Shown here piece by piece: positions 10,351 to 53,538 of a DNA stretch of 64,000 nucleotides; positions within the stretch are counted from its first letter, which is position 1; every line of letters begins with the position of its first letter. The stretch comes from Alphaproteobacteria bacterium. GTDB taxonomy: Bacteria; Pseudomonadota; Alphaproteobacteria; Rs-D84. Where the stretch lies: assembly GCA_009777955.1 (NCBI GenBank), contig WRKW01000001.1, positions 162,309-226,308 of the forward strand. Direction: 5' to 3'. The position numbers were made by a program, and so were the translations under genes. Below the pieces are notes generated by a model. The model was not told the origin of the DNA and did not search any database. It saw only the letters and a list, made by a program, of their open reading frames with translations.

Positions 10351-10384
10351 TTCATACCGGTTCCGTTATTCTCGAATGTCATTT

Positions 10385-10446
10385 TGGTATGGCTTATAAT
10401 TTAAACGGCTCTTCTTCAAGAGCCGTTTAAATTATAAGCCATACCA
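10385..10446. terminator. Bidirectional intrinsic terminator, a 62-nt near-perfect palindrome between convergent rpsA and mpg.
   Basis: The sequence tggtatggcttataatttaaacggctcttcttcaagagccgtttaaattataagccatacca is a perfect inverted repeat with a 4-nt loop. It lies between the convergent 3' ends of rpsA (+) and the glycosylase gene (-). Confidence 0.6.
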
Positions 10447-10475
10447 GAAAGCCATGGTATGCAAAAATCGGGCAA

Positions 10476-25500: not shown

Positions 25501-27184
25501 GGGTGGTGTCAACAATTGGCTTAATTCTTTGAGGGGTGAAACCGGTGTCCAAGGAGCGATTGGTTTGCAGGGTGAGACTGGTGCAACCGGCGCAACTGCG
25601 GGAGAAGTTGCCGAGGTGCTTAAATACGATTCTGGATTTGTTGATTCTGTGCGAGGACATCAGGGGGTTGCCGGTGCTACGGGCATATCTGCGTTCGAGC
25701 TTGCTATCGAAGAAGCCGGTTACGATATGTGGGGTGGTGTCAACAGCTGGCTTAACTCTCTGAGAGGTGAAACTGGTGTGACTGGTGCGACCGGTCTGTC
25801 GGCATTTGAATTTGCTCAACAGTATGACGATACCTTTGGTATGACAGAGATAGAATGGCTGCAGTCTCTGAGAGGTGAAACCGGCGTGACTGGTGCGACC
25901 GGTGCTACTGCGGGCGAAGTTGCGGATTATCTGTCGCAAGATCAGGACTTTGTTGATTCTGTACGGGGACCTCAGGGGTTCACGGGCGCTACTGGTCTGT
26001 CGGCGTATGAGTTGGCTGTCGAAGAAGTTGGTGATGATATATGGGGCAGTATTGAAAATTGGCTTGATTCCATAAAGGGTGAAATAGGTCCCCAGGGAGT
26101 GAAGGGGGATGATGGCGCGGGTATAGAAATTTCCGGTTCTGTCGATACATATGGCGGTTTGCCCAATAACCTTACATCCACTGATGCGGGAAGGGCGTAC
26201 TTTGTCCGTGGTGATGGGTTGCTTTATGTCTGGGATGGTGCAGGATTTCCAATCGATGGCAATGGAATCCAGTTCCAGGGGCCGGCCGGAGCATCCGCAT
26301 TCCAGCTTGCCATAGAAAGTGGCGTTTGGACTGGCGCGACCGGTCCACAGGGTGAATTGGAATGGCTTACGTCACTTCAGGGAGTCATAGGTGTCGATGG
26401 TAAATCTGCATTCGAGCTTGCTATAGAAAGTGGTGTTTGGACCGGCGCGACCGGCTTGCAAGGTGAATTAGAATGGCTTGAATCGCTTCAGGGGGTTATA
26501 GGTGTTGATGGTAAATCTGCATTCGAGCTTGCACAAGAATTCGACCCAAATGTGACATTGGAAACAACTATGGAAGAGTGGCTGGAATCTCTTCGGGGAG
26601 CGACTGGTCCATCCGGAGTATTGAACACAGATAATGACGAACCCTTGGAAGTTCCGTCCGAACCAGAGTTGCTTTCCGGCGATTTGCAGTTGCACAGGGT
26701 TTCAAAAACTGGGAATTACGAGCATTTAAATGAATTGCCTATGTTAATGACGAGCATAGAAGCCCAAAGCGCGATTGAAGAAGCGACCCCGATTTTTGGT
26801 GATGTGATTCTGCATCAAGTATCAAGAACGGGGAATTATGATCATCTTATTGATATACCAACCCTTGCGATACAACAAGAGGCACAGATCGTGCCAGAAG
26901 AAGGACAAGAGCTGTTTTCAGGCCAAATAACCCTGCAAACAGTCTCAAAAACTGGGGATTATACGGATCTTCACAATACGCCAGCAATTTGGGATACAGC
27001 TGGATTGATTGGAACAATCGGAACACTTGGCACTGATGGACTTCCCCTTATTCCCACCGATGATACCGAAGGGAAGTTGATCGATGGCCAAACGATACAA
27101 CAAACCATTATTACAGTACAGGGTGGCAAAGTCGAAGGGTATCTTATAGTTCCGACACAGGTATTACCGGAATGGACATGGTAA
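22553..27184 (+). CDS. Giant secreted collagen-like triple-helix repeat protein with phage-tail-fibre-like repeats.
   Basis: The 1543-aa protein has a signal peptide (ILALCPMVAQA) and a long Gly-X-Y region (GPQGHQGETGATGAQGAAGTDG...GPAGPAGPAGSAG...). It contains about nine 31-42-aa units (GATGATAGQVAEVLKEDSEFIESARGHQG) and the repeat [VS]K/RTGNY.HL...P three times near the C-terminus, resembling phage tail fibre repeat motifs. It lies antisense between plsX and fabH. Confidence 0.7.
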   Translation: MAGTESFLVKKSSVSYLVILALCPMVAQAASTVRTSSAGISSSTSATQSVGSIGSSALKSVGASTSSGSVSRVPAMPKGATSGSLTSSGSCVNCPDVDLSDYAKRRDVDAVEARVDDLEIELDGKANISDVYFQHEVYNKEEIHELLDDFQSGEDGATGPQGHQGETGATGAQGAAGTDGTVGTQGFQGFQGVTGATGAVGAQGATGVQGATGLVGLSAYQVALSRSNVLVGLPENATEIQFLEWLKGPQGAPGSAGLQGAQGPQGSAGSGSGGGGAQGPAGPAGPAGSAGPQGNIGPQGPAGPAGPAGPAGSAGSAGPAGPAGSQGNIGPQGSAGPAGPAGSAGPQGIMGAQGQAGAQGAAGSQGAQGAQGAQGAAGSQGATGAQGAQGIGVTGAQGATGTQGAQGEQGVQGTGATGATGATGETGVQGAPGLTGPQGERGEIGAGISAYAMAQAQGYSGSEIEWIASLKGATGMSAFELAQQQGIAAGMTESQWVESLKGSTGATGATGTDEYQVASTLINNPNFIESVRGPKGDQGAQGVTGAEAWQVADILKVDSEFLESARGYQGVTGAAGATGASAEEIAELLVVDPLFVDAVKGPTGPTGAQGQDGILGGDGKSALEVAREYMNLPNMTFSEWSEFLRGDVGVAGPTGPTGAAAWQVAEVLKEDSEFLESARGYQGETGATGATGATAGQVAEVLKEDSEFLESARGYQGEIGATGATGATAGQVAEVLKEDSEFMESARGYQGVTGATGATAGQVAEVLKEDSEFIESARGHQGAIGATGATAGQVAEVLKEDSEFIESARGHQGATGTSAFNLAIEEAGYDIWGGVNNWLDSLKGATGATGATGATAGQVAEVLKEDSEFIESARGHQGTQGVTGATGVTGATGATGATAGQVAEVLKEDSEFIESARGHQGTQGVTGATGVTGVTGATAGQVAEVLKEDSEFIESARGHQGVAGAAGISAFELAIEEAGHDMWGGVNNWLNSLRGETGVQGAIGLQGETGATGATAGEVAEVLKYDSGFVDSVRGHQGVAGATGISAFELAIEEAGYDMWGGVNSWLNSLRGETGVTGATGLSAFEFAQQYDDTFGMTEIEWLQSLRGETGVTGATGATAGEVADYLSQDQDFVDSVRGPQGFTGATGLSAYELAVEEVGDDIWGSIENWLDSIKGEIGPQGVKGDDGAGIEISGSVDTYGGLPNNLTSTDAGRAYFVRGDGLLYVWDGAGFPIDGNGIQFQGPAGASAFQLAIESGVWTGATGPQGELEWLTSLQGVIGVDGKSAFELAIESGVWTGATGLQGELEWLESLQGVIGVDGKSAFELAQEFDPNVTLETTMEEWLESLRGATGPSGVLNTDNDEPLEVPSEPELLSGDLQLHRVSKTGNYEHLNELPMLMTSIEAQSAIEEATPIFGDVILHQVSRTGNYDHLIDIPTLAIQQEAQIVPEEGQELFSGQITLQTVSKTGDYTDLHNTPAIWDTAGLIGTIGTLGTDGLPLIPTDDTEGKLIDGQTIQQTIITVQGGKVEGYLIVPTQVLPEWTW
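24520..25440 (+). repeat. In-frame tandem repeat array of 93-126-bp units, about eight copies, inside the collagen-like gene.
   Basis: The nearly identical unit ggtgcgactgcgggacaggttgccgaagtgcttaaagaagatagtgaatttatagaatc(t/c)gcaagggg(a/g)catcagggt... recurs with spacings of 102, 102, 93, 93, about 195, about 126 and about 120 bp. All are multiples of 3, with a degenerate copy near 25590. Confidence 0.7.
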
Positions 27185-37862: not shown

Positions 37863-37924
37863 TAGATAGGCTTTGCCCGCGCTGCGAATGGTTGTGTAAC
37901 CATATGTGCAAGTCAAGTTTAACC

Positions 37925-38040
37925 TGAACGGCTCTCGTAAGAGAGCCGTCATGCTTTTCGTTTTTTTGAATGAATAATGAATAATTAATGCGTCGCGCAA
38001 AGCGCACACCACCGTCGACGGCAACTTCGTTGCCGTTAAA
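37925..38040. repeat. MITE-like dispersed repeat, copy A. It has a stem-loop module plus a GAATGAATAATGAATAAT module.
   Basis: The copy reads aacggctctcgtaagagagccgtcatgcttttcgtttttttgaatgaataatgaataattaatgcgtcgcgcaaagcgcacaccaccgtcgacggc. Related copies are at 41195, 46575 and 49150. Confidence 0.55.
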
Positions 38041-38078
38041 AATCAGTATGCAAACTAATTAATTTTCAGAAAAAAGCA

Positions 38079-40820
38079 TTAAGCGGCTTGTTGCCAACCT
38101 TGACCTATCATCCAATTTTGACGTAGTAAGTCCAATTCGCTAAGCGGCTTGCCTTTGGCATCTACTTCTGACGATGCCTGTTTGAATTCTGCTCTTATAC
38201 GACTTTGGTGACGGAATGGATTCTGACTATCAGACATTCCCGATTGCAGAAAATCCCAATAATAAGTAAGTTCGCTGACTATATTCAGCTTTTCTTTCTT
38301 TGCTGGTTCCGCTTTATTTTTCAGTATCTCCTTTCTAGCATCGATTTCATTCTTTGCGAATTTCAAATCGAAATCGGCTTTTTCATGGGCTTCACGCTTT
38401 TTATCGTACTCTTTATAACTATCAGATTCGAAAACCGCCTCGATGTTTTTGAGATCATTGTTTTTTATATTTTCTATTTCAGATTTTAAAGTATCAGGCC
38501 TTTCAAATACATCCTTAATTGTTTTGGTTTGTGTAACTTTTTTTTCTTTTTTACTTATTTCGGCATCTTTCGCAGTTTTTGACTGAAAATTTGTTTTTAT
38601 ATTATTATCTATCGCTTCTATCTTTTTAGTCAGTTTATCCCATTCAGCTTTTTGTACTTGCGCGGCCTGTTCTATATTGACTGTCATTGGGCTTGCCCGA
38701 ACCAGCAAATTTTGTCCCATCCATGATTTATCCGCTTCCAACCGTTGTTTTTCCTGTTCCAACCGTTGTTTTTCCTGTTCCAACCGTTGTCTTTCTGTTT
38801 CCAATTGTCGTTTGTTATTCACAGCTGTTCTATGATCAGCTCTTGCCGCATTAAGGTCATAATTATCGGACAAATTCGGATTCTCTTCTTTTAGTTTTTT
38901 GATTTCTGCTTCTGCTTTGCTTTTATCAGATTCCAGGTTACTTATTCTTTTATCAATATTCTTTTTTTTGTTTTGAAAATAAGTAGGACTTTTGTCCCCT
39001 TGGTCACTTTTAAATGCATCCCTAGCTGCTTTCATTTCCTGTTCTGCGGTTTCCTTTTTAATCTTTAATTCGGGCTCTTTTTGTTCCCAAGTATCAATTA
39101 TCTTTTGAAGTTCTTCTGGCGATTCATTTTTACCCTTGATTTCGTTGTATCGATCCGCAATTTTCATCAAGAATTCGTTATGACTTTCTTTTTCTCCAAA
39201 TTTTAAACCGGTTCTATGATACGTGCGCCACAAATAGTTTAATCCTTCGAACGTGGCTCTTGCGCCGAATTTTACTACACGGTCAACTATGCGACCCATA
39301 AATGCCAGCGGGGTTCCTTTTGCCGATGGCATATCGCCAAAAAATCCCCAATTTGATTTTTCACCGAACAGTTTTTCGCGTACATTGCTGGTAAATGGAC
39401 CGTATTGCATTACGCTTAAAACTTCCAGCAAAATTTTTGCCGCTTCCAACTTGTCTTCTGTGGCTGCACGTTTTATTATAATCTCTACCAAATGATGCAT
39501 TTGCCGCCCGTTTTTCAGCGCACTTGCAAAAGATTTCTTTAAACCTTGATCTTTTGAAAATTCTTCCAAAAGCTCTTTACCCCATTTCCAGTTTGGTATT
39601 GATCCGCTTGAATTGGCTTCTACATAATTCCAAATGTCCTCTTGCTTTTCGACTATTTTACCCAGACCATCTTGCGGTTTTATTTCCAGTTTATAAATCC
39701 CGTCCACAACGGCTTTTGCAGCGGGGTTACTATAAGAATGGCGATGATGCCGATTTCCAAATTTATCCCACGTCCCTTCGCGATAGTCATTCCATGCCTT
39801 GTCGATGTGTTCGCGAATCCCCCTTTTATCATCACTTTTTGCGACAATCTGGTTAAATTTGTCGCCTTTATAATCTATATTGTCTTTGGCGGCTGCTATG
39901 GCTGCTTTTAAATCTGGTTCACTGTTGTCAAAAGCGCCGACGCGCTGGTCTTTTTCGTAAAGTTCAGACATCAAGACCGACCAGTTCTCTTTAATATATT
40001 TTATATCTTCTTTTTCATCAACTGGTTCGGGTTTTCTTCCATTTCGAAAAGCATTAATGGTTGCTAAGTCTATTTCTTTTGGTGTTGGATTCGCCGCATT
40101 ATCAATATTCTGACTCAGCATCTGCAAAGCATCTTCTGCCTTGTCAAAAAATTCTGTACCAGCTTCTCCTGGATTAAGGAGATCTGTGTAAAAACTATCG
40201 GGTACATCCACTTTAAAATTACCATAAGAGCTCCGTAACGCCACATTGAATGCATTTTTATTTTTATCGCTTTCATCTACGAATTTTCCGATCTTAATCA
40301 ATGCATTAAGAGCTTCTTTTTTATAAATATCTTCTGGTTTTATCGGTTGAAATGGTTTTGTTTTGTCTGTGCCGCTACTGTTATAGTATTTATCCATCCA
40401 ATCCAATACGAACAGCTTGTCTTTGCCCGGAACAGAACTTCTGGATGCGTGTATTTTGCGGAAATTGTCACGAAAGTATACGTAAAGTTTTTCCCAATCG
40501 TTGTCATTAAGCTTTACATTAATTGGTTGTCCGGCAAGATCGAATTTATTTTCACCATCTTCGCCACTATACCCAAGTGCTTTATATCCAACATCTGTTG
40601 GTTTGTTTATATGATCTTCCCAAATACCGCTGTTTGGGCATGGTTGCATAGAACGAAGATAACGCCACCACAGCAGTTGTGTTTTTGATGCTTCATTTTT
40701 TGAAACCATATCCTCCAGACGCACTTGCTGTGCACTGGGCATGGAATTCGCATGTAGCCATTTGTAATACTGGTCTGCAAAATTTGCCAGTGGTGTTGAA
40801 TTGCTGAAACTTGTTGCCAT
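38079..40820 (-). CDS. Large hypothetical coiled-coil protein (913 aa), a candidate secreted effector.
   Basis: It has no signal peptide and a central coiled coil with the heptad-like repeat QRLEQEK x3. It is a Lys/Glu/Asp-rich, low-GC gene bounded by MITE-like repeats (37925 and 41195) and tRNA-Leu(TAG). Confidence 0.5.
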   Translation of the reverse strand: MATSFSNSTPLANFADQYYKWLHANSMPSAQQVRLEDMVSKNEASKTQLLWWRYLRSMQPCPNSGIWEDHINKPTDVGYKALGYSGEDGENKFDLAGQPINVKLNDNDWEKLYVYFRDNFRKIHASRSSVPGKDKLFVLDWMDKYYNSSGTDKTKPFQPIKPEDIYKKEALNALIKIGKFVDESDKNKNAFNVALRSSYGNFKVDVPDSFYTDLLNPGEAGTEFFDKAEDALQMLSQNIDNAANPTPKEIDLATINAFRNGRKPEPVDEKEDIKYIKENWSVLMSELYEKDQRVGAFDNSEPDLKAAIAAAKDNIDYKGDKFNQIVAKSDDKRGIREHIDKAWNDYREGTWDKFGNRHHRHSYSNPAAKAVVDGIYKLEIKPQDGLGKIVEKQEDIWNYVEANSSGSIPNWKWGKELLEEFSKDQGLKKSFASALKNGRQMHHLVEIIIKRAATEDKLEAAKILLEVLSVMQYGPFTSNVREKLFGEKSNWGFFGDMPSAKGTPLAFMGRIVDRVVKFGARATFEGLNYLWRTYHRTGLKFGEKESHNEFLMKIADRYNEIKGKNESPEELQKIIDTWEQKEPELKIKKETAEQEMKAARDAFKSDQGDKSPTYFQNKKKNIDKRISNLESDKSKAEAEIKKLKEENPNLSDNYDLNAARADHRTAVNNKRQLETERQRLEQEKQRLEQEKQRLEADKSWMGQNLLVRASPMTVNIEQAAQVQKAEWDKLTKKIEAIDNNIKTNFQSKTAKDAEISKKEKKVTQTKTIKDVFERPDTLKSEIENIKNNDLKNIEAVFESDSYKEYDKKREAHEKADFDLKFAKNEIDARKEILKNKAEPAKKEKLNIVSELTYYWDFLQSGMSDSQNPFRHQSRIRAEFKQASSEVDAKGKPLSELDLLRQNWMIGQGWQQAA
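38745..38830. repeat. 21-bp tandem repeat (about four copies) inside the coiled-coil gene, encoding QRLEQEK.
   Basis: The unit ttccaaccgttgtttttcctg occurs twice perfectly, followed by two degenerate copies. Confidence 0.6.
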
Positions 40821-41052: not shown

Positions 41053-41137
41053 GCGGATATGGCGAAATTGGCAGACGCGCTGGATTTAGGTTCCAGTGGG
41101 GAAACCCATGGGGGTTCAAGTCCCTCTATCCGCACCA
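41053..41137 (+). tRNA. tRNA-Leu(TAG), class II.
   Basis: The sequence is GCGGATATGGCGAAATTGGCAGACGCGCTGGATTTAGGTTCCAGTGGGGAAACCCATGGGGGTTCAAGTCCCTCTATCCGCACCA. It has an acceptor stem GCGGATA/TATCCGC, an anticodon stem CTGGA/TCCAG with loop TTTAGGT (anticodon UAG), a long variable arm and a T-loop GGTTCAAGTCC. Confidence 0.85.
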
Positions 41138-41194
41138 TCCCTTGCGGTTATGGGTTGTAAAAATCAATAATTTCATGGACAGAATTACAATCTA

Positions 41195-41310
41195 AACGGC
41201 TCTCGTCAGAGAGTCGTCATGCCTGCGGCGGCAGGCATCCACTGTTCAATAAGGCATCGTGCGATACATACATTATTCATTATTCACTATTCATTCAAAA
41301 ACGAAAGGCA
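41195..41310. repeat. MITE-like dispersed repeat, copy B, in inverted orientation. It contains the stem-loop, GC-palindrome and inverted GAATAAT-repeat modules.
   Basis: The copy reads aaacggctctcgtcagagagtcgtcatgcctgcggcggcaggcatccactgttcaataaggcatcgtgcgatacatacattattcattattcactattcattcaaaaacgaaaggcatgac. It lies immediately 3' of tRNA-Leu(TAG). Confidence 0.55.
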
Positions 41311-41331
41311 TGACAGCGGCTAAGGGAAGTT

Positions 41332-43125
41332 TCACTCTACGATTGCTGGGATTACTACGATGTCATTATAACCACTAAGAAAACGGTTGCCAGTTTTACA
41401 ATATATCTTTTGCAGGGAATCTTTGTATTCACGTTCGGCGGCAGCATAGCGCACATCTATTTCGTCCTGTGCCCCGTGGTATGCCGAAAGCCCGCCAAGC
41501 GCACCACCCGCCACACCGCCGGTTACGGTTGCGGTTGTCCGTGCCTGGTTTTGAAAATCGACTAAGCGTCCATCATCGGCACTGTCGTATAATGGAGAGA
41601 AACTTGAGTTATTGACTCCATCAGATGCTACAAACAGGCTTCTTATTTTAGTACCTCTACGATATGCAATCGTACCTTTAAGCCATCCTGATTTTTTTTC
41701 TGACCATGTACTTGCATCTGGGGCTTTTAAGCCCTTTGTCGCATCATCAGGCAAAATCAAAACAGCAGGTTCTTCTCTGGTTACAAAAAAACCATCATCT
41801 ATCGGTATGTATGTTTCATAGCCATCGCCCTCACCTTTACAACCATCCCTATCAAGTTTAATATGTTTATTTTCATCCCAAAATTTACACCCTTTATTTC
41901 GATTCTCTGGCTTAGTAAATGCACTGGCCAATGACTCCCAATCTGTCCAATCTTCTTTGGTTCCGCATCCCCCTGTAGAGAGATCTTTATCAGGATTTTT
42001 TATTTTCCATCCTGTCGCTCGTATAGCGGTACAAATATATTTGTCTGGACAGTTTGAATGTGAAAATTCCTGTCTTGTACAAGTGACAATAGTATCTCTA
42101 CTGAGAGTTAGATATGCCAGACAGTCACTTTGGTCACATTTTTTTGATATCTTCTCACCGGCCGAGAGTATCGTTCCCCATAGACATTGCTGGTTCGATT
42201 TCGCGCCGACAGCTTCCGCATCGTCTGTAGCTTCCGTTTCACAATCCCGTATCATCAGCTTTGACTTTCCGATTCCAGACATGTTGCCCATAAATGCGCC
42301 ACCGACGGCATTAACGCCCGCACCCATCAATGTATTTCCCCCGACGTGCCCCATTTGGGTCGATGCGTATGTTACACCACCGGCACCAATTGCGCCCTTT
42401 ACCGCCGCGCCCAGATTATCTTTGGTTTCGGTTCCCGGATTGCTTCGGTTTAAAAAGAACATGCCTGCACCACCAACCAATGCGGCGGCGGCGGTTTTCA
42501 GGCCGGCATTTTGCTTTTGTTCTTGATCCATAATTTTTTTAACATCTTCCTTTGTGGGGGCTTTGTCTGCTGGGAATGTAACCTTTCCGGCATCTATGGT
42601 ATATCCGGATTCAGGAAAATGGCTTATGTTACAATCGACGCTGTCACCGGCGGCAACAAATGCATGTGCCAGCAGTATGTCATTATTGCCATGTTGCAGC
42701 CACATCCCGACTTCCGCTACGCATCTGGGGGTATTGTCACCAATGCGTAATCCGGCATTTGGTGCTGTCCATGCGAATTTTCCCTGGGGATTAATAGCGG
42801 CGCATCTTTGAAGTGCTTCGATGGCGACGGGCATATTTCCCGGCGCGACAGCACCCGGCGTGCGATAACCCATGACTATGGCGCGCGCGACATCCGGATC
42901 CACAACACGTACGGGCAGGGCGGCGATTTCTGCTTCGATTCCTTCGGGGGATGCATAATATGCGGCTTCGGCCTGCATCTGGGTAATCTGGTTGTATCCT
43001 TCGGCATAATATGCGCGTGGATTCGATTGCTGTGTTCCGCTGGTAATACGAACCGCGGCATGCGGGGATGATGCTGTTAAAGCAATGAATAATGAATAAT
43101 GAATAATGAATAATGTCTTTTTCAT
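41332..43125 (-). CDS. Hypothetical secreted Cys-rich protein (597 aa).
   Basis: The signal peptide MKKTLFIIHYSLFIALTASS is partly encoded by the GAATAAT repeat. There are many Cys residues in the central region (CDQSDCLAYL, CTRQEFSHSNCPDKYIC, GGCGTKEDW, CKFWDENK, DGCKGEGDG). I recognise no family. Confidence 0.4.
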   Translation of the reverse strand: MKKTLFIIHYSLFIALTASSPHAAVRITSGTQQSNPRAYYAEGYNQITQMQAEAAYYASPEGIEAEIAALPVRVVDPDVARAIVMGYRTPGAVAPGNMPVAIEALQRCAAINPQGKFAWTAPNAGLRIGDNTPRCVAEVGMWLQHGNNDILLAHAFVAAGDSVDCNISHFPESGYTIDAGKVTFPADKAPTKEDVKKIMDQEQKQNAGLKTAAAALVGGAGMFFLNRSNPGTETKDNLGAAVKGAIGAGGVTYASTQMGHVGGNTLMGAGVNAVGGAFMGNMSGIGKSKLMIRDCETEATDDAEAVGAKSNQQCLWGTILSAGEKISKKCDQSDCLAYLTLSRDTIVTCTRQEFSHSNCPDKYICTAIRATGWKIKNPDKDLSTGGCGTKEDWTDWESLASAFTKPENRNKGCKFWDENKHIKLDRDGCKGEGDGYETYIPIDDGFFVTREEPAVLILPDDATKGLKAPDASTWSEKKSGWLKGTIAYRRGTKIRSLFVASDGVNNSSFSPLYDSADDGRLVDFQNQARTTATVTGGVAGGALGGLSAYHGAQDEIDVRYAAAEREYKDSLQKIYCKTGNRFLSGYNDIVVIPAIVE

Positions 43126-43520
43126 TTTTTTAAACTGTCTTTTGTGTCATTGCGAGTGTGTCATTGCGAGAGCGAAGCTCGAAGCAATCTTTCTCGGTAC
43201 TGGGTTTTATATTTTCCCGGTTTTTCGAGATTGCTTCACATTCTACGAACACTCGCAATGACACTCTTTGTTTGACTAGATTGCTTCGCATTCTGCGAAC
43301 GCTCGCAATGACGTTTACACCCATAAGCTTTTTTTAAACTGTCTTTTGTGTCATTGCGAGAGCGAAGCTCGAAGCAATCTTTCTCGGTACTGGGTTTTAT
43401 ATTTTCCCGATTTGACTAGATTGCTTCGCATTCTGCGAACGCTCGCAATGACACTCTTTGTTTGACTAGATTGCTTCGCATTCTACGAACGCTCGCAATG
43501 ACGTTTATACCCATAAGCTT
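43118..43520. repeat. Tandemly duplicated palindromic element, two full roughly 190-bp units.
   Basis: The block aaactgtcttttgtgtcattgcgagagcgaagctcgaagcaatctttctcggtactgggttttatattttccc ... tttgactagattgcttcgcattctgcgaacgctcgcaatgac ... acccataagcttt occurs twice. Each unit contains the inverted repeats tcattgcgag(a/t)gcg and cgctcgcaatga. A related sequence (tcgttcgctatgctctctcgcaatgacag) lies upstream of the GIY-YIG gene at 43800-43850. Confidence 0.6.
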
Positions 43521-43795
43521 TCAAACAAATCTTTCCAATAAGGATTAGCTTTTGTTATCAGCTCTATTTTCTTTTTCCTTGAACCAGCTTTAAGTTGTTT
43601 TTCTCTTTTTATAGCGCATGTGACTTCTGAAAAGGTTTCGTAGTATCCAAGTTTATCTATATTATATTTCAGGGTAAATCCCTTTATCAGATGTCGTTTG
43701 TGTTCTCCTATTCTGCGATATAAATCATTAGTTATTCCGATATACAGTGTTCCATCAGGTTTATTAAACAGAATGTATACGTAGTATGTTTTCAC
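43505..43795 (-). CDS. GIY-YIG nuclease superfamily mini-protein (YhbQ/UPF0213-like), with a probable GTG start.
   Basis: The product contains YYVYILFNKPDGTLYIGITNDLYRRIGEHK (GIY-YIG core with Arg and Glu). A GTG codon at 43793-43795 gives a roughly 96-aa product of typical size. The longer ATG-initiated frame would overlap the upstream OMP gene. Confidence 0.5.
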   Translation of the reverse strand: MKTYYVYILFNKPDGTLYIGITNDLYRRIGEHKRHLIKGFTLKYNIDKLGYYETFSEVTCAIKREKQLKAGSRKKKIELITKANPYWKDLFESLWV

Positions 43796-43854
43796 TTTTG
43801 TTTTCTTGCTTGACGAGATTGCTTCGTTCGCTATGCTCTCTCGCAATGACAGGT

Positions 43855-46329: not shown

Positions 46330-46574
46330 AAGGTTTCTCCTTTTTTACGTAAAGCATGATTCTGTGAAGCGCGAGTTGTATGATAATATTCGTCACGTGC
46401 CTTACTTTTTACACTTTACGAAGTTTATTTTGATCCTGCGCCCATTTTTGGCAACACAGGACATACGAATCGTACATATAATCCGGAATAAAGTCAAAAA
46501 ACATTGGGTTTGACATTTAGTGTTAAATATTGTAGCCGATTACATGTGTTGTTGTGGATGCAAATTTGTATCGT

Positions 46575-46695
46575 GCGTTGTGCGCACACCACTGTCATAT
46601 TTTCTGTTTTTTGAATGAATAATGAATAATGAATTCGTCGCGCAAAGCGCGACACCATCGTCTTCTTTAAAAGAGCCGTTCAGGTTATAATTCTA
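46575..46695. repeat. MITE-like dispersed repeat, copy D.
   Basis: The copy reads gtgcgcacaccactgtcatattttctgttttttgaatgaataatgaataatgaattcgtcgcgcaaagcgcgacaccatcgtcttctttaaaagagccgttcaggtt. It shares the ttttttgaatgaataatgaataat(t)aat(g)cgtcgcgcaaagcgc..caccatcgtc module with the other copies. Confidence 0.55.
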
Positions 46696-46731
46696 TCCAC
46701 GAATTAATTGACTTGCGTAAGGCGCTTATTA

Positions 46732-47454
46732 TTACATTTCCAATACTTGTTTCTGCAATTCTATCAGCTTGTCACAGCCTTTTGCAGCAAGTGCCATCAT
46801 GTCGGTCAGTTGGGTCGGATTAAACGGACGGGCTTCGCCTGTTACCTGGATTTCGATGAATTTTCCGCTTCCCGCAACGACAAAGTTAGCATCCAGATCC
46901 GCCGTATGATCTTCTTCAAATTCCAGATCCAGAATCAATTCGTTATTCCAATATCCAACGCTGGTCGCGGCTATGAAATCGGATACCGGATCTTCGTTAA
47001 TCCGACCCGATTCGAGAAGCTTTTTCATCGCCAGCTTTAATGCCACGAATCCACCCGTAATTGCGGCACAACGGGTTCCGCCATCGGCCTGGATAACATC
47101 ACAGTCGATTGTTAAGGTGTGTTTTCCCAATTTTTCCATATCTATCACAGATCGAAGTGCGCGTCCGATAAGCCGGGTAATTTCTGCACTGCGATGATCT
47201 TTTATCATTGCTTCACGTGATTTTCGGATTTCGTTCGCACGTGGCAGCATGGAATATTCCGCGCTGACCCAGCCGCCGGTTTTATTCTGTTGACGTTTCC
47301 AAAGGGGTTGGTTCATTTCAACGGATGCGTTGCAAATTACATGGGTTCCGCCAACTTTTATCATGGCCGATCCTTCGGCCCATTTGTTGATATTGATTTC
47401 AATCGATACGGGTCGCATCTGATCTGGTTTGCGAAGTGAGGGGCGTATGGGCAT
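46732..47454 (-). CDS. rph: Ribonuclease PH. The start is possibly at the internal ATG at 47418.
   Basis: RNase PH motifs are present: HAEGSAMIKVGGTHVICNASVE, ...GWVSAEYSMLPRAN, RGRALRSVID and TIDCDVIQADGGTRCAAITGGFVAL. Confidence 0.9.
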   Translation of the reverse strand: MPIRPSLRKPDQMRPVSIEININKWAEGSAMIKVGGTHVICNASVEMNQPLWKRQQNKTGGWVSAEYSMLPRANEIRKSREAMIKDHRSAEITRLIGRALRSVIDMEKLGKHTLTIDCDVIQADGGTRCAAITGGFVALKLAMKKLLESGRINEDPVSDFIAATSVGYWNNELILDLEFEEDHTADLDANFVVAGSGKFIEIQVTGEARPFNPTQLTDMMALAAKGCDKLIELQKQVLEM

Positions 47455-49145: not shown

Positions 49146-49149
49146 TTGC

Positions 49150-49345
49150 TGATTTTTTGAATGAATAATGAATAATTAATGCGTCGCGCAAAGCACAACA
49201 CCATCGTCATGCCTGCGGCGGCAGGCATCCATTGTTCAATAAGACATCGTGCGCATAGCGCACGATACATACATTATTCATTATTCACTATTCATTCAGC
49301 TGAAATCCACTGTACAATAAAGCATCGTGCGCCCCGCGCACACCA
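49150..49345. repeat. MITE-like dispersed repeat, copy E, the most complete copy with terminal inverted repeats.
   Basis: The copy reads tttgaatgaataatgaataattaatgcgtcgcgcaaagcacaacaccatcgtcatgcctgcggcggcaggcatccattgttcaataagacatcgtgcgcatagcgcacgatacatacattattcattattcactattcattcagctgaaatccactgtacaataaagcatcgtgcgccccgcgcacaccact. The terminal inverted repeats are GAATGAATAATGAATAAT and ATTATTCATTATTCAcTATTCATTC. Confidence 0.6.
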
Positions 49346-50659
49346 CTATAACAACTCGCCCGCTTTTATGTATTCGGGCGAGTTTTTTGGTAATACAGAA
49401 CGGGCGCGTTTCGCGTGTTCGCGTGTTTTTGATTTTTCTTTAATCATGGAATAATGTTCCGCCATAGCCCAATCGGCGATGCCGGAATTTCCGCGAAGTC
49501 TTTCCGCTTTGGACAAAACCCAATAGGCCAGTGGTGTCGGCTGTACCAACAGTGCGCGCTTTGCCATTTCTACCGCGCGATCGGCATCACCCTGCTTATT
49601 GCGTTCGGCCAATACCAGTGCCAGCGCGGTCTGAATCTGTGGCGCGCTTTTCAGCCCAATTGATTTTTCATAGGCTTTCACACTGTCGTCATAATGCCCA
49701 GACCGATATTCTATATCGCCCAAAAGTTCATAGAAAAAGGGGTTTTCCGGCGCGCGCGAAATCAGGGTAAGGGTTCCTGTTTTGGCCGCACCGACATCGC
49801 CCGCGCGCATGGCTGAAATTGCACGGGCATAAATTGCGGCATTTGATTTGTCTTTGGGTGGATATATTGTTCTTACCCTGTCCATCGGTGACAAATATCC
49901 GATCAGCTTTGCGCGGATCAGATTATATCTTTCAATCTGCGTCTTGTCTGCCTTGCGCGCTTTGCAGTTTTCGCATTCTTTCAGTCTATCTCTTACATTT
50001 TTTAATCGTTCGCTGGTAAACGGGTGTCTAAGATTATATGGATTAGCGCGTGCTTCTGCGGCACCCACCATGTCTTGCATCTGCTTCATTATGGTGGCAA
50101 ATCCGTTTGGATCCAAATCTGCTTTTATCATCAAATCTATGCCAAGGCTGTCGGCAATGCGTTCCTCGTCCCGGGAAAATGCCATTAGCGAAGAGTTTGC
50201 GATTCCGCCAGCACCGGCTACTATACCCATGCCCATCTGTGGATTTCCGCCCGCAACCATAAGGCCCACGCCAAGCGATTGGATGATAAGCGATCGTATC
50301 AGTTCGGCACGTATCTTTGCGGACATTTGGACGATATGCCCGCCGATCATGTGACCCAATTCGTGTGCTATGACGGCCTGGAAAGCCGATGGCTCTTCAA
50401 TCCGTGTAATCAGGCCTGTGTAAATATAAATATCCTCTCCGCCTGTAACAAATGCATTAAAATCATCATTACTTATGATGCGGATTTGTAATCTGTTTTC
50501 GGGGATGTCCGCTGCCCTGGTTAATGGTTCGATCAGTTCGTGGATAACGACTTCGATTTCTGTATCCTGGATCATGCGCATATTTGCATGTGCTTCGCTT
50601 TTGCAGAATGCAAAGTGCAAAGCGCAAAGCGCGTATAAAATTGCAAGAAACTTTTTCAT
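49346..50659 (-). CDS. bepA: Periplasmic M48 family metalloprotease with a C-terminal TPR domain (BepA/YfgC-like).
   Basis: It has a signal peptide, the HExxH motif AHELGHMIGGH, and C-terminal TPR-like helices (YRSGHYDDSVKAYEKSIGL..., ALALVLAERNKQGDADRAVEM). Confidence 0.7.
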   Translation of the reverse strand: MKKFLAILYALCALHFAFCKSEAHANMRMIQDTEIEVVIHELIEPLTRAADIPENRLQIRIISNDDFNAFVTGGEDIYIYTGLITRIEEPSAFQAVIAHELGHMIGGHIVQMSAKIRAELIRSLIIQSLGVGLMVAGGNPQMGMGIVAGAGGIANSSLMAFSRDEERIADSLGIDLMIKADLDPNGFATIMKQMQDMVGAAEARANPYNLRHPFTSERLKNVRDRLKECENCKARKADKTQIERYNLIRAKLIGYLSPMDRVRTIYPPKDKSNAAIYARAISAMRAGDVGAAKTGTLTLISRAPENPFFYELLGDIEYRSGHYDDSVKAYEKSIGLKSAPQIQTALALVLAERNKQGDADRAVEMAKRALLVQPTPLAYWVLSKAERLRGNSGIADWAMAEHYSMIKEKSKTREHAKRARSVLPKNSPEYIKAGELL

Positions 50660-50676
50660 CTGGTCTGATGATATTG

Positions 50677-52503
50677 TTATCCCAGCAGTTTTTGTAGCAA
50701 GGTTTTCTTTTTTGCGTCTTGCTTGCTTTTACTGTTGCTATTCTTGCCTTTGCTGCTGTTTTGTCGCCGCCGCCGCGATGGCGCGTTCTGTGCCGCCTTG
50801 CGCGCTTCGGCATGTACGGCGTTTTTCTTCTTCACATCAGTGGATGGTGTATACGCGTTTAATAATTCGTCGGTTTTCGCCGCTTCTGGTGCAACGCGTT
50901 GTATAGAATATTGTTCGATATTCAGCATGCTGTCGTCGCCGATAATGACGATTTCCGTATTGAATTTTTCTTCCATCGCCGTCAAATCCGGGCGTTTCGC
51001 ATTCAAAAGATAAACGGCTACATCGCTTGGCACAGTCATTATGATTTTCTGGGCCGACTTTGCCAAAAGCTTTTCTTGTAAATGCCGGAACATGATAATT
51101 GCGGCTGTCTGTATCGACGGCACCACGCCCGCGCCCAAGCAATGCGGGCATTGGACATAGCTGGATTCTATAAATGATGAACGCAAGCGTTGCCGCGACA
51201 TCATCAAGACACCAAAACTGTTGATTTTGGAAACTTGTGTGCGCGCCCGGTCGCGCTTCATTACTTCACGCACTTTTGTTTCAAGCTTTCGGTTATTGCG
51301 TTCTTCTTCCATATCTATAAAGTCTATCGCGATAATGCCGGCCAAATCGCGAAGGCGCAATTGCAGCGCGATTTCTTCGGCTGCTTCCAGATTGGTGTTA
51401 AGTGCGGTCGCTTCAATGTCTTTTTCTTTGATGGCACGGGATGAATTGACATCTATTGTAACCATAGCTTCGGTAGAATTGATAACAAGCGATCCGCCGG
51501 ACGGCAACTGAACCACGGGTCCGTGCAATCCTTCTAGTTGTTGTTCCAGCCCCGCGCGAACCAATAGCGGAACTGCGACATCATCGTATTTTATTATTGC
51601 TTTCTTCGGTGCGCGACCATGCATCTGTTGATAGAATTCGACCGATTGAGCGTATGCTTCGTCGCCCTGGATGGTAAGAATGTCGGTTGGTTCAGAAAGG
51701 AAATCGCGTACAACGCGGCGAAGCAGGGAATCTTCGGTATGAATGGTTGATGGGGCGACCGATTTTAAAGTATTTTCCCGGATTTCATTCCAAAGGTTGG
51801 TAAGGTATTCATAATCTTTTGCAATATCCTTGCCGTCGGCACCAAATGCGGCGGTACGCAGAACGACGGTCATTCCACGCGGAATTTTCAACCCGTGCAG
51901 AATTTCGCGCAGACGGGCGCGCTCTACCCGATCGGAAATCTTTTTGGATATGCCATAAGAATTGCGTTTTCTGGAATTCGGCATAAGAACGGCAAATCGT
52001 CCGGCCAGGGACAAGTAAGTTGTCATGCTGGCACCTTTCTGGCCGCGTTCTTCCTTTACCCCCTGGATAAGAAGTATTTGCTTTGGTTTTATGACATCTT
52101 GGATTTTGAATTCTTTTGCACGTTTAAGGAATTCTTTATTGTCTTCGCCCGCGTCATTATCATCGTATTCTGCGATTTCGGCATCATCGGACGGATCTTC
52201 GTCATAGTCGACTATGTTGGCATGCGCCAGTTCAAGCAACTTTTTCTTTTGCTCTGCGGTAATCTGATAATAATCCGGGTGAATTTCGGAAAATGGCATA
52301 AAGCCGTTTTTTCCACTGCCATAATCTATGAACGCGGCTTGCAACGACGGTTCTATACGTATGACTTTGGCCAGATAAATATTGCCCTTGATCTGAGGTT
52401 TAGTTGTTGTTTCTACATCAAAATCAGAAACGCGACCATTTTCGGCCACTACTACGCGTGTTTCCTCCGGGTGGACTGCATCCACATATATTTTCTTTAT
52501 CAT
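50677..52503 (-). CDS. Ribonuclease E/G family endoribonuclease.
   Basis: From the ATG at 52501-52503, the N-terminal S1 domain MIKKIYVDAVHPEETRVVVAENGRVSDFDVE parallels RNase E (MKRMLINA...RVALVDGQRLYDLDIE). The catalytic core has DNase-I-like and Zn-link regions (C..C..CxGxG) and a Lys/Arg-rich C-terminal tail. Confidence 0.8.
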   Translation of the reverse strand: MIKKIYVDAVHPEETRVVVAENGRVSDFDVETTTKPQIKGNIYLAKVIRIEPSLQAAFIDYGSGKNGFMPFSEIHPDYYQITAEQKKKLLELAHANIVDYDEDPSDDAEIAEYDDNDAGEDNKEFLKRAKEFKIQDVIKPKQILLIQGVKEERGQKGASMTTYLSLAGRFAVLMPNSRKRNSYGISKKISDRVERARLREILHGLKIPRGMTVVLRTAAFGADGKDIAKDYEYLTNLWNEIRENTLKSVAPSTIHTEDSLLRRVVRDFLSEPTDILTIQGDEAYAQSVEFYQQMHGRAPKKAIIKYDDVAVPLLVRAGLEQQLEGLHGPVVQLPSGGSLVINSTEAMVTIDVNSSRAIKEKDIEATALNTNLEAAEEIALQLRLRDLAGIIAIDFIDMEEERNNRKLETKVREVMKRDRARTQVSKINSFGVLMMSRQRLRSSFIESSYVQCPHCLGAGVVPSIQTAAIIMFRHLQEKLLAKSAQKIIMTVPSDVAVYLLNAKRPDLTAMEEKFNTEIVIIGDDSMLNIEQYSIQRVAPEAAKTDELLNAYTPSTDVKKKNAVHAEARKAAQNAPSRRRRQNSSKGKNSNSKSKQDAKKKTLLQKLLG

Positions 52504-52824
52504 TACGTAAATCCTTGAAGTTAAAGCGTAAAATAAAAGTACCGAACTGTCCCCGTGAGCCACAGGCTACGTCAGGGGAGTGCGCAATAGTCACGGCCAG
52601 CGCCGCACAGATCAGAAAAATCAATGTAGATACAAACACTAATTTGCCTTTTACTTATAGCTGAGTTCATGTTATCACGGGCTGGGGTGTTTTTCAAGGG
52701 GAAAATAGGGTCATGATTGCGGATTTATGATTGGTAATGAGCACAAATTACCACGATCGCCCGTTCTGTTGCGTTCGGGATGCTGTACATGGGATCTGGA
52801 ATACCCACTTACGCGTGGCGCGAT
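52504..52824 (-). promoter_or_regulatory. Long 5' leader and promoter region upstream of the RNase E/G gene, a candidate autoregulatory UTR.
   Basis: A roughly 320-bp non-coding interval with multiple potential hairpins (for example gtccccgtgagccacaggctacgtcaggggag) precedes the rne-like start. RNase E genes classically have long structured autoregulatory leaders. Confidence 0.3.
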
Positions 52825-53538
52825 TCACATGTTTGCCAATCGGGTTACAGTTTCCCAATGATTTGAATTTTTGGCGGAATAGATTTTGCCATCCGCAACC
52901 AGATAATGGTCGTATAAAACTATTTCCAAAGCGTCCAGTTTTCGTTTCAAATCTGCCGTTGTTTTTATATCATCGTCTGAAAATTGACCCGTGCCGCCAG
53001 GATGGTTGTGCATAATCGCCATAACTTTTGCATTCAGCTCTATTGCACGTTTCGCCATTTTTATCGGATATGCGGCAGTTTCATCAGATGTTCCGCGCGA
53101 ATGAATATCTTTTGCCAACATCCGGTATCCAGCATCCATATATATGATGTGAAATTCTTCTTCCGTTTTACCCATAAATTCCAATCGGCAATAATTTTCA
53201 AATTTCTCAGACTCATGGAATATCGGCACATTTGCGGCCATATTTTCATACTTCATTGTACTTGCATTACGTATAAGCTTGATAAGCCGTGCTGTTTTCG
53301 AACCTATGCCGGGAACAGCCAATAACTTTTCCGATGATGCGGTAAGTACGCCATAGAATCCGCCGAATTTTTTCAAAAGCTCCCTTGCCACAGGTTTTGT
53401 ATCGATACGCGGAATAGCATAGAACAAAAGTGCTTCTAAAACTTCATTTTCAGATAATGGATCGGAACAGGAATCGAGTTTTTCAAAAACCCTTTCTCTG
53501 TGTCCATGCCGATAATCTTTCGATTTCTTGTTATTCAT
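52825..53538 (-). CDS. radC: RadC-like JAB/MPN domain protein (UPF0758).
   Basis: From the ATG at 53536-53538. The N-terminal HhH region (LLAVPGIGSKTARLIK) and the C-terminal JAMM motif block (ESEKFE...HNHPGGT...SDDD) are typical of RadC. Confidence 0.75.
   Translation of the reverse strand: MNNKKSKDYRHGHRERVFEKLDSCSDPLSENEVLEALLFYAIPRIDTKPVARELLKKFGGFYGVLTASSEKLLAVPGIGSKTARLIKLIRNASTMKYENMAANVPIFHESEKFENYCRLEFMGKTEEEFHIIYMDAGYRMLAKDIHSRGTSDETAAYPIKMAKRAIELNAKVMAIMHNHPGGTGQFSDDDIKTTADLKRKLDALEIVLYDHYLVADGKIYSAKNSNHWETVTRLANM

Follow-up and report, generated by a model that had tools for sequence, protein, structure and literature searches.

The intergenic repeats around position 49,150 of the window, which is the whole 64,000-nt stretch of alphaproteobacterial DNA analyzed here, are on balance best read as a lineage-specific mosaic. 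We favor a REP/NIME/SPRITE-like, terminator-like family built around a CGTC-tagged REP (CGTC-1), here called the T family. What was observed comprises the anatomy and placement of the repeats, stem covariation, an architecture conserved in related species, and module shuffling. From these, we infer that the units, once transcribed, form RNA structures that resemble terminators or protect 3' ends, and that paired units work in both directions. Spread and homogenization would proceed as in REP/NIME-type repeats, not by cut-and-paste of a MITE bounded by terminal inverted repeats (TIRs) and target-site duplications (TSDs).

Repeat sites in the window

All module sequences quoted in the original prediction, which was made from the sequence alone, were found at the positions given for them. 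The T motif (TTTGAATGAATARTGAATAAT, up to three mismatches) has five matches in 64 kb (37965, 41279-, 46610, 49156, and 49280-), while 100 shuffles gave an expectation of 0.00. The GC palindrome ATGCCTGCGGCGGCAGGCAT occurs exactly twice (41219 and 49209) and the stem AACGGCTCT-N6-AGAGCCGTT three times (10404, 37927, and 41195), with none expected in either case. A repeat search returned a common 56-nt segment in three copies (77–100% identity to the reference copy) and a common 50-nt segment with 96% identity between sites B and E. The same search yielded the inverted arms of the 49150 unit (49162-49189 and 49260-49287, 28 nt, 82% complementary). Five sites had been predicted to share modules. 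Sites A, B, D, and E do so far beyond chance, but site C has the heptamer array only. The sites and their modules are listed below.

Site A: 37921..38045, no strand, between a convergent ProRS-like gene (+) and a 913-aa ORF (-)
Site A, modules: S hairpin 37927-37949, then GTCAT and a T-run, terminator-like on the + strand; T array 37961-37989; H1 37991-38008; S2 hairpin 38018-38036
Site A, order on the - strand: S2, H1, U-rich heptamer tail
Site B: 41166..41314, + strand, 29 nt past tRNA-Leu(tag), preceding the stop of ORF 41332-43125 (-)
Site B, modules: L 41166-41190; S hairpin 41195-41217; CGTC tag; P 41219-41238; X 41239-41257; H2 41258-41263, loop and 3' arm deleted; T' 41272-41296; J 41297-41314, ending in ATGAC
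Site C: 43084..43115, - strand, (ATTATTC)4.6 tandem array in ORF 41332-43125; the T-arm heptamer, no element copy
Site D: 46570..46709, - strand, immediately 3' of RNase PH (- strand) and 5' of the next gene's conserved promoter
Site D, modules on the - strand: L 46709-46685; degenerate S 46684-46662; H1 46654-46636; heptamer tail 46634-46607; J' and ATGAC 46598-46594; H-type hairpin 46593-46570
Site E: 49146..49345, no strand, the whole spacer between the convergent stops of an LPG-synthase-like gene (+) and an M48 peptidase gene (-)
Site E, left: T array 49153-49180; H1 49182-49200; CGTC tag 49205-49208; P palindrome 49209-49228
Site E, middle: X 49229-49247; H2 49248-49264; then a linker
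Site E, right: T' array 49273-49300; X' 49307-49325; H3 49326-49342
CGTC-1 type REP in site E: 49205..49231, + strand, CGTC, ATGCCTGC GGCG GCAGGCAT, CCA
rpsA-mpg palindrome: 10376..10455, no strand, 80 nt between convergent rpsA and mpg, with a central S-type hairpin AACGGCTCTTCTTCAAGAGCCGTT and L-like flanks

The repeat at 49150 also takes in a further X'-H3 module, up to 49345, and this module is a family repeat in its own right. The supposed partial element at 43081-43112 turned out to be nothing but an (AATGAAT)4.6 tandem array within the 5' end of ORF 41332-43125. The proposed kinship of the rpsA-mpg palindrome with the family was confirmed for the L+S module, and nothing else is shared. 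An nhmmer census with profiles of both arm types gave no additional copies in the 64-kb window. The flanking DNA on overlapping contigs (~9 kb upstream and ~8 kb downstream) contains no T-family copies. All window copies are confined to 12 kb (37.9–49.3 kb), with none in the remaining ~52 kb. An Rfam search at gathering thresholds and at E ≤ 5 matched only tRNA.

Arms, arrays, and module shuffling

Each array was oriented from the outside inwards, which left two arm types, both alignable end to end across the window and the metagenomic contigs L067–L069 (described below). The type I arm consists of the T array, TAATG, hairpin H1 (GTCGCGC AAA GCGCGAC), and ACACCATCGTC. Six examples were found (A, D, E-left, L067b, L068-left, and L069c). 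The type II arm, read in sense, has an optional S or S2 hairpin, CGTC, the 20-nt palindrome P, motif X (CCAYTGTWCAATAARRCAT), hairpin H2, ATACATAC, and an (ATTATTC)n array (n = 5: B, E-right, L067a, L068-right, and L069a). At E and L068, both located between convergent genes, a type I and a type II unit stand back to back around a single P. Arms are single at 6 of 9 sites, and their partners differ. The heptamer arrays of the arms comprise 2, 3, 4, or 4.6 units and have ragged outer ends. Sequence beyond the arrays is often conserved too, as for GTCATGCYTTTCGTTTTT at A and B and GGATTTCARCT at E-right and L067b; therefore, the array is not the end of the repeat.

The junction ACACCATCGTCAT leads to P (E, L067b, and L068) or to a G-family hairpin (L067, ~3990-4020). 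The related junctions ACACCACYGTC(AT) are followed by S2 at A or by J'+T at D. The modules recombine independently of one another. Copies at different loci are 93–100% identical, which rules out terminators of independent convergent origin. Three further candidates were rejected. A sigma-70 promoter reading of the T motif was discarded, as the arrays have no promoter-like match. Integron attC sites would need R/L core sites, of which there are none, and the neighboring genes are housekeeping and syntenic. DNA-uptake-sequence pairs were dismissed, since no short motif is over-represented beyond the repeats.

The P module and stem covariation

CGTC-tagged REPs have an unpaired CGTC (or TGTC) tag and stems of 8–9 bp that almost always start with A-T pairs (PMC3733652). 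Their loops have 4–5 nt and their tail is CCA; they occur mainly in Alphaproteobacteria, downstream of coding regions (PMC3733652). CGTC-1 has been equated with Neisseria dRS3 and Rickettsia RPE-6, and repeats of the CGTC type apparently lack a dedicated transposase (PMC3733652, Di Nocera, De Gregorio & Rocco 2013). Judged on its sequence, the P palindrome is a CGTC-tagged REP of the CGTC-1 type, with every published sequence feature of the class. The sequence ahead of the stem is CGTCAT at B, E, L067a, and L069a, in L073, and in the second of the L070 units (L070 and L073 are related species). The tag variants are TGTCAT in L068 and GGTCAT in the first L070 unit. P has an 8-bp stem starting with AT and a 4-nt loop, and stem positions 3 and 6 covary (GC/UA/CG and UA/CG/GC). 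CCA comes after the stem in 7 of 8 aligned units; the exception, the second one of L070, has CCC. The window and L070 contain two P units each, whereas L067a, L067b, L068, L069a, and L073 have one each. The L070 unit after RNase PH has the exact dRS3 form ATTCCC-N8-GGGAAT, as compared with the published consensus (PMC1797815).

The covariation alignment contained eight type II units from the window, L067–L070, and L073, representing at least three species. In this alignment, 99.1% of the stem cells were paired, and two-sided changes occurred in 7 of 15 pairs. The covariation score was 0.419 as compared with 0.143 in shuffles, none of 500 reaching 0.419, and slid partners scored at most 0.074. 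Across the eight units, CGTCAT and ATCCAYTGT are essentially invariant, and the P and H stems change compensatorily. These invariant unpaired motifs are superfluous for a terminator, and they argue for a sequence-specific partner.

L073 (78% RNase PH identity) carries an S2-CGTC-P-X-H composite in sense after a 110-aa gene (nhmmer E = 3.6e-9). As this composite ends in a plain U-rich tail, the composite architecture predates the (GAATAAT)n arrays, which replace the plain tail in the window's organism.

Copies at other loci, in other strains, and in other samples

A metagenome scan with the T+H1 junction gave three contigs, L067, L068, and L069. L067 and L068 belong to sample JGI24701J34945, and L069 comes from a different sample. 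Since the former sample also has contigs (L076 and L078) encoding proteins identical to those of the window, L067 and L068 are most likely other loci of the window's organism. The similarity of the three contigs to the window is limited to the repeats, and the gene contexts are unrelated. Because the repeats alone match, the family is dispersed. Its predicted multi-copy nature was borne out by composite units recurring in unrelated gene contexts on all three contigs. A protein database query with the repeat-encoded ORF, seeking other copies, returned the same locus only.

L066, from another assembly, is 99.6–99.9% identical to the window over 37906-59145. Its differences are confined to a 21-nt tandem unit in the 913-aa ORF, a single SNP at 41083, and the TGTCATTGCGAG repeat region at 43.1–43.5 kb. 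Ongoing mobilization or recombination had been suggested from mixed and partial copies; we saw no sign of it, the T-family sites being identical in this strain. The nearest RNase PH (46732-47454) relatives after a 100% match reach at most 81% identity. Species at 77–81% RNase PH identity have no T sequences, and their spacers cannot be aligned.

We also scanned a genome collection with the T motif. The scan gave 65 loci in many phyla, where the match comprised only the heptamer part (up to 31 nt). According to a tally from the arrays listed, 32 of these 65 loci have an inverted (ATTCATT)n array at most 400 nt away, with unrelated cores. The inverted-pair loci examined were all intergenic (21 of 21) with mixed gene contexts, and several of these loci are orthologues of each other. 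The presence of inverted heptamer pairs in many phyla weakens the view of the arms as lineage-specific transposase binding sites. The idea that the inverted (GAATAAT)n pairs of other phyla are bidirectional terminators found no support, as their gene contexts are mixed.

Target-site duplications and the nature of the arms

The original prediction interpreted the site E unit as a MITE. In its classical form, this element would be derived from an insertion sequence (IS), bounded by GAATAAT-rich TIRs, and moved by a transposase encoded elsewhere that makes a TSD. Part of the description stood up: the repeats are multi-copy, with inverted arms and a stable predicted fold. The full unit measures ~150 nt, its inverted 28-nt arms are 82% complementary, and it is predicted to fold into a long stem (z = -6.4). 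It occurs in at least three contexts (E, L068, and L067b), and both of its ends at E are flanked by GCTGA. However, no TSD was detected at L068, L067b, or the half sites. The right GCTGA at E lies within a flank (GGATTTCAGCT) repeated at L067b, and E-right and L067b share GGATTTCA[G/A]CT. Since sequence beyond the arrays is conserved at these two sites, the GCTGA direct repeat at E is no TSD.

The arms themselves are heptamer microsatellites. They are built of 2–4.6 tandem units with ragged outer ends, they are solitary at 6 of 9 sites and joined to varied partners, and the modules recombine separately. Inverted (GAATAAT)n pairs also flank unrelated cores in many phyla. The search for a cognate transposase gave none among the Pfam/NCBIfam matches listed, and none was present among the best 25 Pfam families listed for most window ORFs and the main L067–L069 ORFs. 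Considering the TSD test and the nature of the arms, the classical MITE reading probably fails, and we regard it as quite unlikely.

Position and predicted folding

Over all loci (~11 units in all), 7 of 11 sites lie between convergent genes. A and E are located between convergent genes, and B lies between tRNA-Leu and a converging ORF. In the tandem gene contexts (D, L067b, and L073), all three units stand in sense right after the upstream stop; L069c has no upstream gene in sense. Site D occupies the space from the stop of RNase PH to a promoter-like region that is conserved among four species. This slot is kept across the four species, and its occupant varies. It holds a simple palindrome with 22-bp arms in L073, a pair of dRS3-like units with two GC hairpins in L070, and a unit with (TTAATAS)n inverted arms and GC hairpins in L074.

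A scan with a simple terminator consensus flagged S(+) at A, H1(-) at D and E, and H3(-) at E. Region-wide, the terminator-like matches showed no significant excess (22 vs 14.8 ± 4.2). The T' tail has 52% U and is interrupted, unlike a canonical U-tract, and the first 8 nt past H1 contain only 3 U. According to the predicted folds, sense-strand units form 2–3 separate hairpins followed by an unstructured tail. For the full E unit, both strands are predicted to fold with the T/T' stem closing a multiloop of three hairpins (z = -6.4 and -6.5), and the z values of the type II units range from -3.8 to -6.4. Alignment A2 has three wobble pairs, and each of them is G-U on the sense strand, as are both mismatches of H1 at E. 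The wobble pair of H3 at L067b, on the other strand, is the single exception. The suggestion that the family doubles as terminators is compatible with the position and orientation of the units, at the level of a predicted role. Site B, with half of H2 missing, counts against the terminator reading. Enrichment after genes and between convergent genes is also expected of tolerated selfish insertions, as was argued for pneumococcal repeats (PMC3049150).

The folding data also bear on a structured ncRNA family originating from 3' UTRs, the conserved loops of which would bind a protein or target mRNAs. Covarying stems adjoining conserved single-stranded motifs, the sense-strand preference of the wobble pairs, and the stable folds predicted for the type II units are consistent with such RNAs. 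Nevertheless, Rfam gave no match even at E = 5, and the modules are freely shuffled and truncated, as exemplified by H2 at B. The DNA hairpins of REP-type elements are expected to covary equally. We consider ncRNAs of this kind highly unlikely.

In the terminator-like mosaic that we favor, the basic unit has the orientation of the upstream gene and lies in sense right behind its stop codon. It may start with a terminator-like hairpin (S or S2), and this is followed by the CGTC tag with the 20-nt palindrome P, the conserved unpaired X motif (ATCCAYTGT...), and a second GC hairpin (H) with a U-rich tail. In the window's organism, this tail has turned into a slippage-prone (AUUAUUC)n array. H1 plus a tail constitutes a shorter unit. 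Between convergent genes, two units are placed back to back around one P, and their tails are the left A-rich and the right T-rich array. The terminal inverted repeat is thus apparent only, because two back-to-back tails read A-rich on the left and T-rich on the right. Spread could take place via recombination or a trans-acting enzyme, with the conserved CGTCAT junction as its site of action.

Heptamer arrays in signal-peptide codons

The array at 43084-43115 encodes LFIIHYSLFI, the hydrophobic core of a plausible signal peptide (MKKT...SSPHA/AV) of ORF 41332-43125. It had been proposed that a copy of the element contributes these codons. The array does encode the core, but no copy was donated, and the orthologues have other heptamers. 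In the L073 orthologue, the array is (TTATTCC)4; an inverted (GGAATAA)4 lies ~80 nt upstream of it, and the M48 gene has an identical stretch of 36 nt. L070 has (ATGCTCT)4, likewise in its M48 gene, and L074 has a degenerate (TTTGCTC)5. The M48 gene of the window carries (GCTTTGC)3.3. Signal-peptide heptamer arrays are a clade-wide property with species-specific units.

Another reading takes the repeats as recombination or contingency elements, in which arrays and dRS3-like palindromes would promote slippage, inversion, and the exchange of adjacent surface-protein genes. A recombination hypothesis was put forward for the Neisseria NIME arrays (PMC1797815). The copies are grouped around four genes without annotation, one or more of which are secreted, and inverted arrays bracket the 597-aa gene. 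In four species, the same two genes have heptamer arrays among their signal-peptide codons. Site E lies at an inversion breakpoint of the M48-RNase E/G block relative to L070 and L073, but the other breakpoint (52563-52825) has no family sequence. Furthermore, array lengths and arrangement are alike in the strains compared (the window and L066), and there is no recombinase nearby in the available DNA. On these grounds, we assign the contingency role a low probability.

The GIY-YIG cassette and a putative partner enzyme

A family related to the T family, but not part of it as reported here, forms a neighboring cassette in the window.

Neighboring cassette: 43126..43854, - strand, (C/T)GTCATTGCGAG...GCAATC tagged hairpin arrays flanking a UPF0213-type GIY-YIG gene

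The GIY-YIG gene (~43508-43795) encodes a 96-aa protein of the UPF0213 family, the nearest solved relative of which is PDB 1zg2 (E = 2e-4). The cassette exactly fills the spacer from the stop of a 420-aa gene to the start of the 597-aa gene. The orthologous spacer has 183 nt in L070, 117 nt in L073, and 11 nt in L074, with no GIY-YIG gene in any of them. The ~200-bp cassette unit is present in two copies in the window vs one in L066. Homologues of the GIY-YIG gene (~64–72% identity) were found at five further independent loci (L079, L080-83, L084-86, L087, and L088/89). These belong to MAGs labelled Rickettsiales, Elusimicrobia, Ignavibacteriales, and Microgenomates, and to one unclassified bacterium. 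At all five, tagged (C/T)GTCATTGCGAG...GCAATC hairpins lie within ~100 nt of the GIY-YIG gene. With the window included, such hairpins flank the gene at six of six loci, usually with a sense hairpin upstream and an inverted one downstream. A literature search gave nothing connecting GIY-YIG proteins with REP-like repeats.

It is possible, if doubtful, that the P unit and the (C/T)GTCATTGCGAG...GCAATC hairpins are substrates of the UPF0213-type GIY-YIG nuclease, in a partnership resembling that of REP and RAYT. To our knowledge, UPF0213 proteins have no demonstrated transposition activity.

Because the unpaired motifs are invariant, a selfish REPIN-like system is a serious, non-exclusive rival of the terminator-like mosaic. 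In such a system, a dedicated nuclease would copy the CGTC-tagged hairpins and the attached modules, and the position after genes would reflect tolerated insertion. The candidate enzyme is the GIY-YIG protein, or a putative RAYT- or IS110-type protein. Invariant CGTCAT and ATCCAYTGT beside covarying stems, the 93–100% identity of copies at separate loci, and the same ACACCATCGTCAT junction preceding P and G hairpins all speak for it. So do the hairpin-flanked GIY-YIG homologues (6 of 6 independent loci, several phyla), the absence of the cassette from the orthologous spacer of three related species, and the cassette hairpin copy number, which varies between near-identical strains or contigs. 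On the other hand, the GIY-YIG genes are flanked by hairpins of the G type, whereas those of the T family are of the P type, and the two strains compared do not differ in their T-family copies. A terminator role would also be compatible with selfish spread. Altogether, we judge this system rather unlikely as the explanation of the family.

Comparison with known repeat systems

The T family resembles the CGTC-1 REPs in its tag, 8-bp AT-starting stem, 4-nt loop, and CCA tail, and those REPs are mostly found in Alphaproteobacteria. Both are located after coding regions, between convergent or unidirectional genes, sometimes within longer palindromes, and no dedicated transposase is known for either. 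In contrast to the CGTC-1 REPs, the REP of the T family is part of a fixed composite with X, a second hairpin, and a heptamer-array tail. P units are single at each site, and the head-to-head dimers typical of the class were not seen.

NIMEs are blocks of 50–150 nt from several repeat families, flanked by 20-bp palindromes of the dRS3 type (PMC1797815, Bentley et al. 2007). As in the T family, the blocks are joined at 20-bp 6-N8-6 palindromes, and GC-rich palindromes alternate with AT-rich blocks. Array positions are partly syntenic, with content differing between related genomes. Unlike NIMEs, the T family forms small arrays with only 1–2 palindromes per site instead of long dRS3 arrays, its blocks carry their own hairpins and tails, and the host class differs. 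No dRS3-integrating phage, prophage, or recombinase was seen in the DNA examined.

SPRITE of S. pneumoniae consists of an oversized duplex and a tract of ~48% U, and it is enriched at the 3' ends of convergent genes (PMC3049150, 2011). TSDs could not be established for it (PMC3049150). The T family shares with SPRITE a duplex followed by a ~50% U tract, simple A-rich and T-rich ends, proximity to the 3' ends of convergent genes, and the lack of an established TSD. It differs in sequence and host, which are unrelated, and in having 2–3 hairpins and a heptamer-periodic tail vs one 18-bp duplex. By analogy, SPRITE is probably the closest functional counterpart of the T family.

REP/BIME elements and the REPIN-RAYT system (PMC2817692 and PMC3116915) have GC-rich imperfect palindromes and a conserved unpaired tag, alternate in orientation with specific linkers, and occur after genes, similarly to the T family. 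However, the tag of the T family is CGTC and not GTAG, and the only nearby nuclease gene is of the GIY-YIG type. No Y1 (RAYT) transposase was among the Pfam matches listed for the ORFs of the window and L067–L069. Bacterial MITEs such as Correia and Nezha (PMC3184786) are likewise intergenic and non-coding, shorter than 200 nt, with inverted arms and a stable predicted fold. The T family departs from them in having no TSD, microsatellite arms instead of IS-like ends, half units that are commoner than full units, and no known parent IS.

The arrays as such have parallels elsewhere. Tandem 7-nt units of varying number make up the cyanobacterial STRR heptamer arrays. The 7-bp repeats of H. influenzae hmw (PMC8262952 and PMC12721329) are also variable tandem 7-nt units, located in 5' regions or between genes. 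Unlike the hmw and STRR heptamers, the T arrays flank hairpins as inverted pairs and form the tails of repeat units, and they showed no length variation between the strains compared.

Implications

The CGTC-tagged REP type has already been described. What appeared to be a MITE of an uncultured alphaproteobacterium is a composite built around such a REP, and the NIME- and SPRITE-like organization extends to a new lineage. The "terminal inverted repeats" would be explicable as two terminator-like tails placed back to back. The clade-wide signal-peptide heptamer arrays are candidate contingency loci in unculturable gut symbionts. If the nuclease partnership proves true, the GIY-YIG protein would be the dedicated enzyme that CGTC-type REPs reportedly lack (PMC3733652), and it would have a different nuclease fold. 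With a GIY-YIG gene that is consistently flanked by hairpins, the question of which enzyme moves CGTC-type repeats becomes directly testable.

Inverted heptamer-array pairs

About half of the 65 heptamer-bearing loci (L001–L065), which belong to very different phyla, were found to contain (GAATAAT)n with an inverted (ATTCATT)n no more than 400 nt away, and the cores between these arms were unrelated. All the examined pairs were intergenic, in mixed gene contexts. Examples are as follows:

L003, 1227–1315: inverted pair
L011, 7140–7274: inverted pair
L058, 6687–6925: inverted pair

Related species have units of their own in which the inverted arms are heptamer arrays, and the spacers that hold these units correspond in part to the occupied spacers of the window:

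L074, 1955–2131 and 3554–3708: unit with (TTAATAS)n arms, two copies in inverted orientation (90–96% match)
L073, 7676–7814: unit with (GGARTKA)n arms

Rearrangement and the GIY-YIG cassette

The M48 peptidase–RNase E/G block (window 49146–52825) is reversed relative to two of the related species (L070, 3507–7788; L073, 2–3226). One breakpoint coincides with the mosaic repeat at 49146–49345; the other (52563–52825) contains no sequence of the repeat family. The M48 gene also contains a hairpin:

49355–49392, plus strand: canonical terminator-like hairpin followed by TTTTTT, within the final 15 codons of M48 (minus strand)

Because the M48 C-terminus encoded here (LPKNSPEYIKAGELL) is kept in L070, the sequence underlying this hairpin is coding.

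Tagged hairpins accompany a nuclease-type gene:

~43508–43795, minus strand: small UPF0213-type GIY-YIG gene, within 43126–43854

Arrays of (C/T)GTCATTGCGAG...GCAATC tagged hairpins flank this gene on both sides. Gene and tagged hairpins occurred together in all six independent loci, from several phyla (window, L079, L080–L089). The cassette is missing from the orthologous spacer of three related species, and the copy number of one of its repeat units differs between two strains.

Strain differences and other features

Outside repeats, the window and the second strain (L066) differ by a single SNP, G/T at 41083, within the tRNA-Leu(tag) gene. Inside the 913-aa ORF, L066 is one unit shorter in the following repeat:

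38736–38804: 21-nt tandem repeat, 3.3 units

The GC content of a collagen-like ORF is 52%, as compared with ~43% elsewhere:

22553–27184: 1543-aa ORF, GGT-NNN-NNN triplets throughout, with 93–231-nt tandem repeats

One metagenome assembly apparently breaks near this ORF.

Four species share a conserved region upstream of the 383-aa gene:

Window, 46330–46500, minus strand
L070, 10900–11113
L073, 6330–6510
L074, 2170–2377

In this region TTGACT-N17-TACGAT resembles a promoter, and GTTGCCAAWAATGGGYGC occurs once or twice. A search of Rfam gave no match for the region, which possibly corresponds to a leader or a regulatory RNA.

Heptamer arrays in signal-peptide codons

In four related species, each with its own heptamer, heptanucleotide tandem arrays supply the codons for the hydrophobic signal-peptide core of two proteins, the M48 peptidase and the 597-aa protein:

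Window, 43084–43115 and 50610–50632
L073, 754–789 and 9070–9209
L070, 5574–5605 and 13842–13873
L074, about 4870–4905

No difference in array length showed up among the strains available for comparison. The two genes of L073 have an identical 36-nt stretch in common. Phase variation or concerted evolution may lie behind these arrays.
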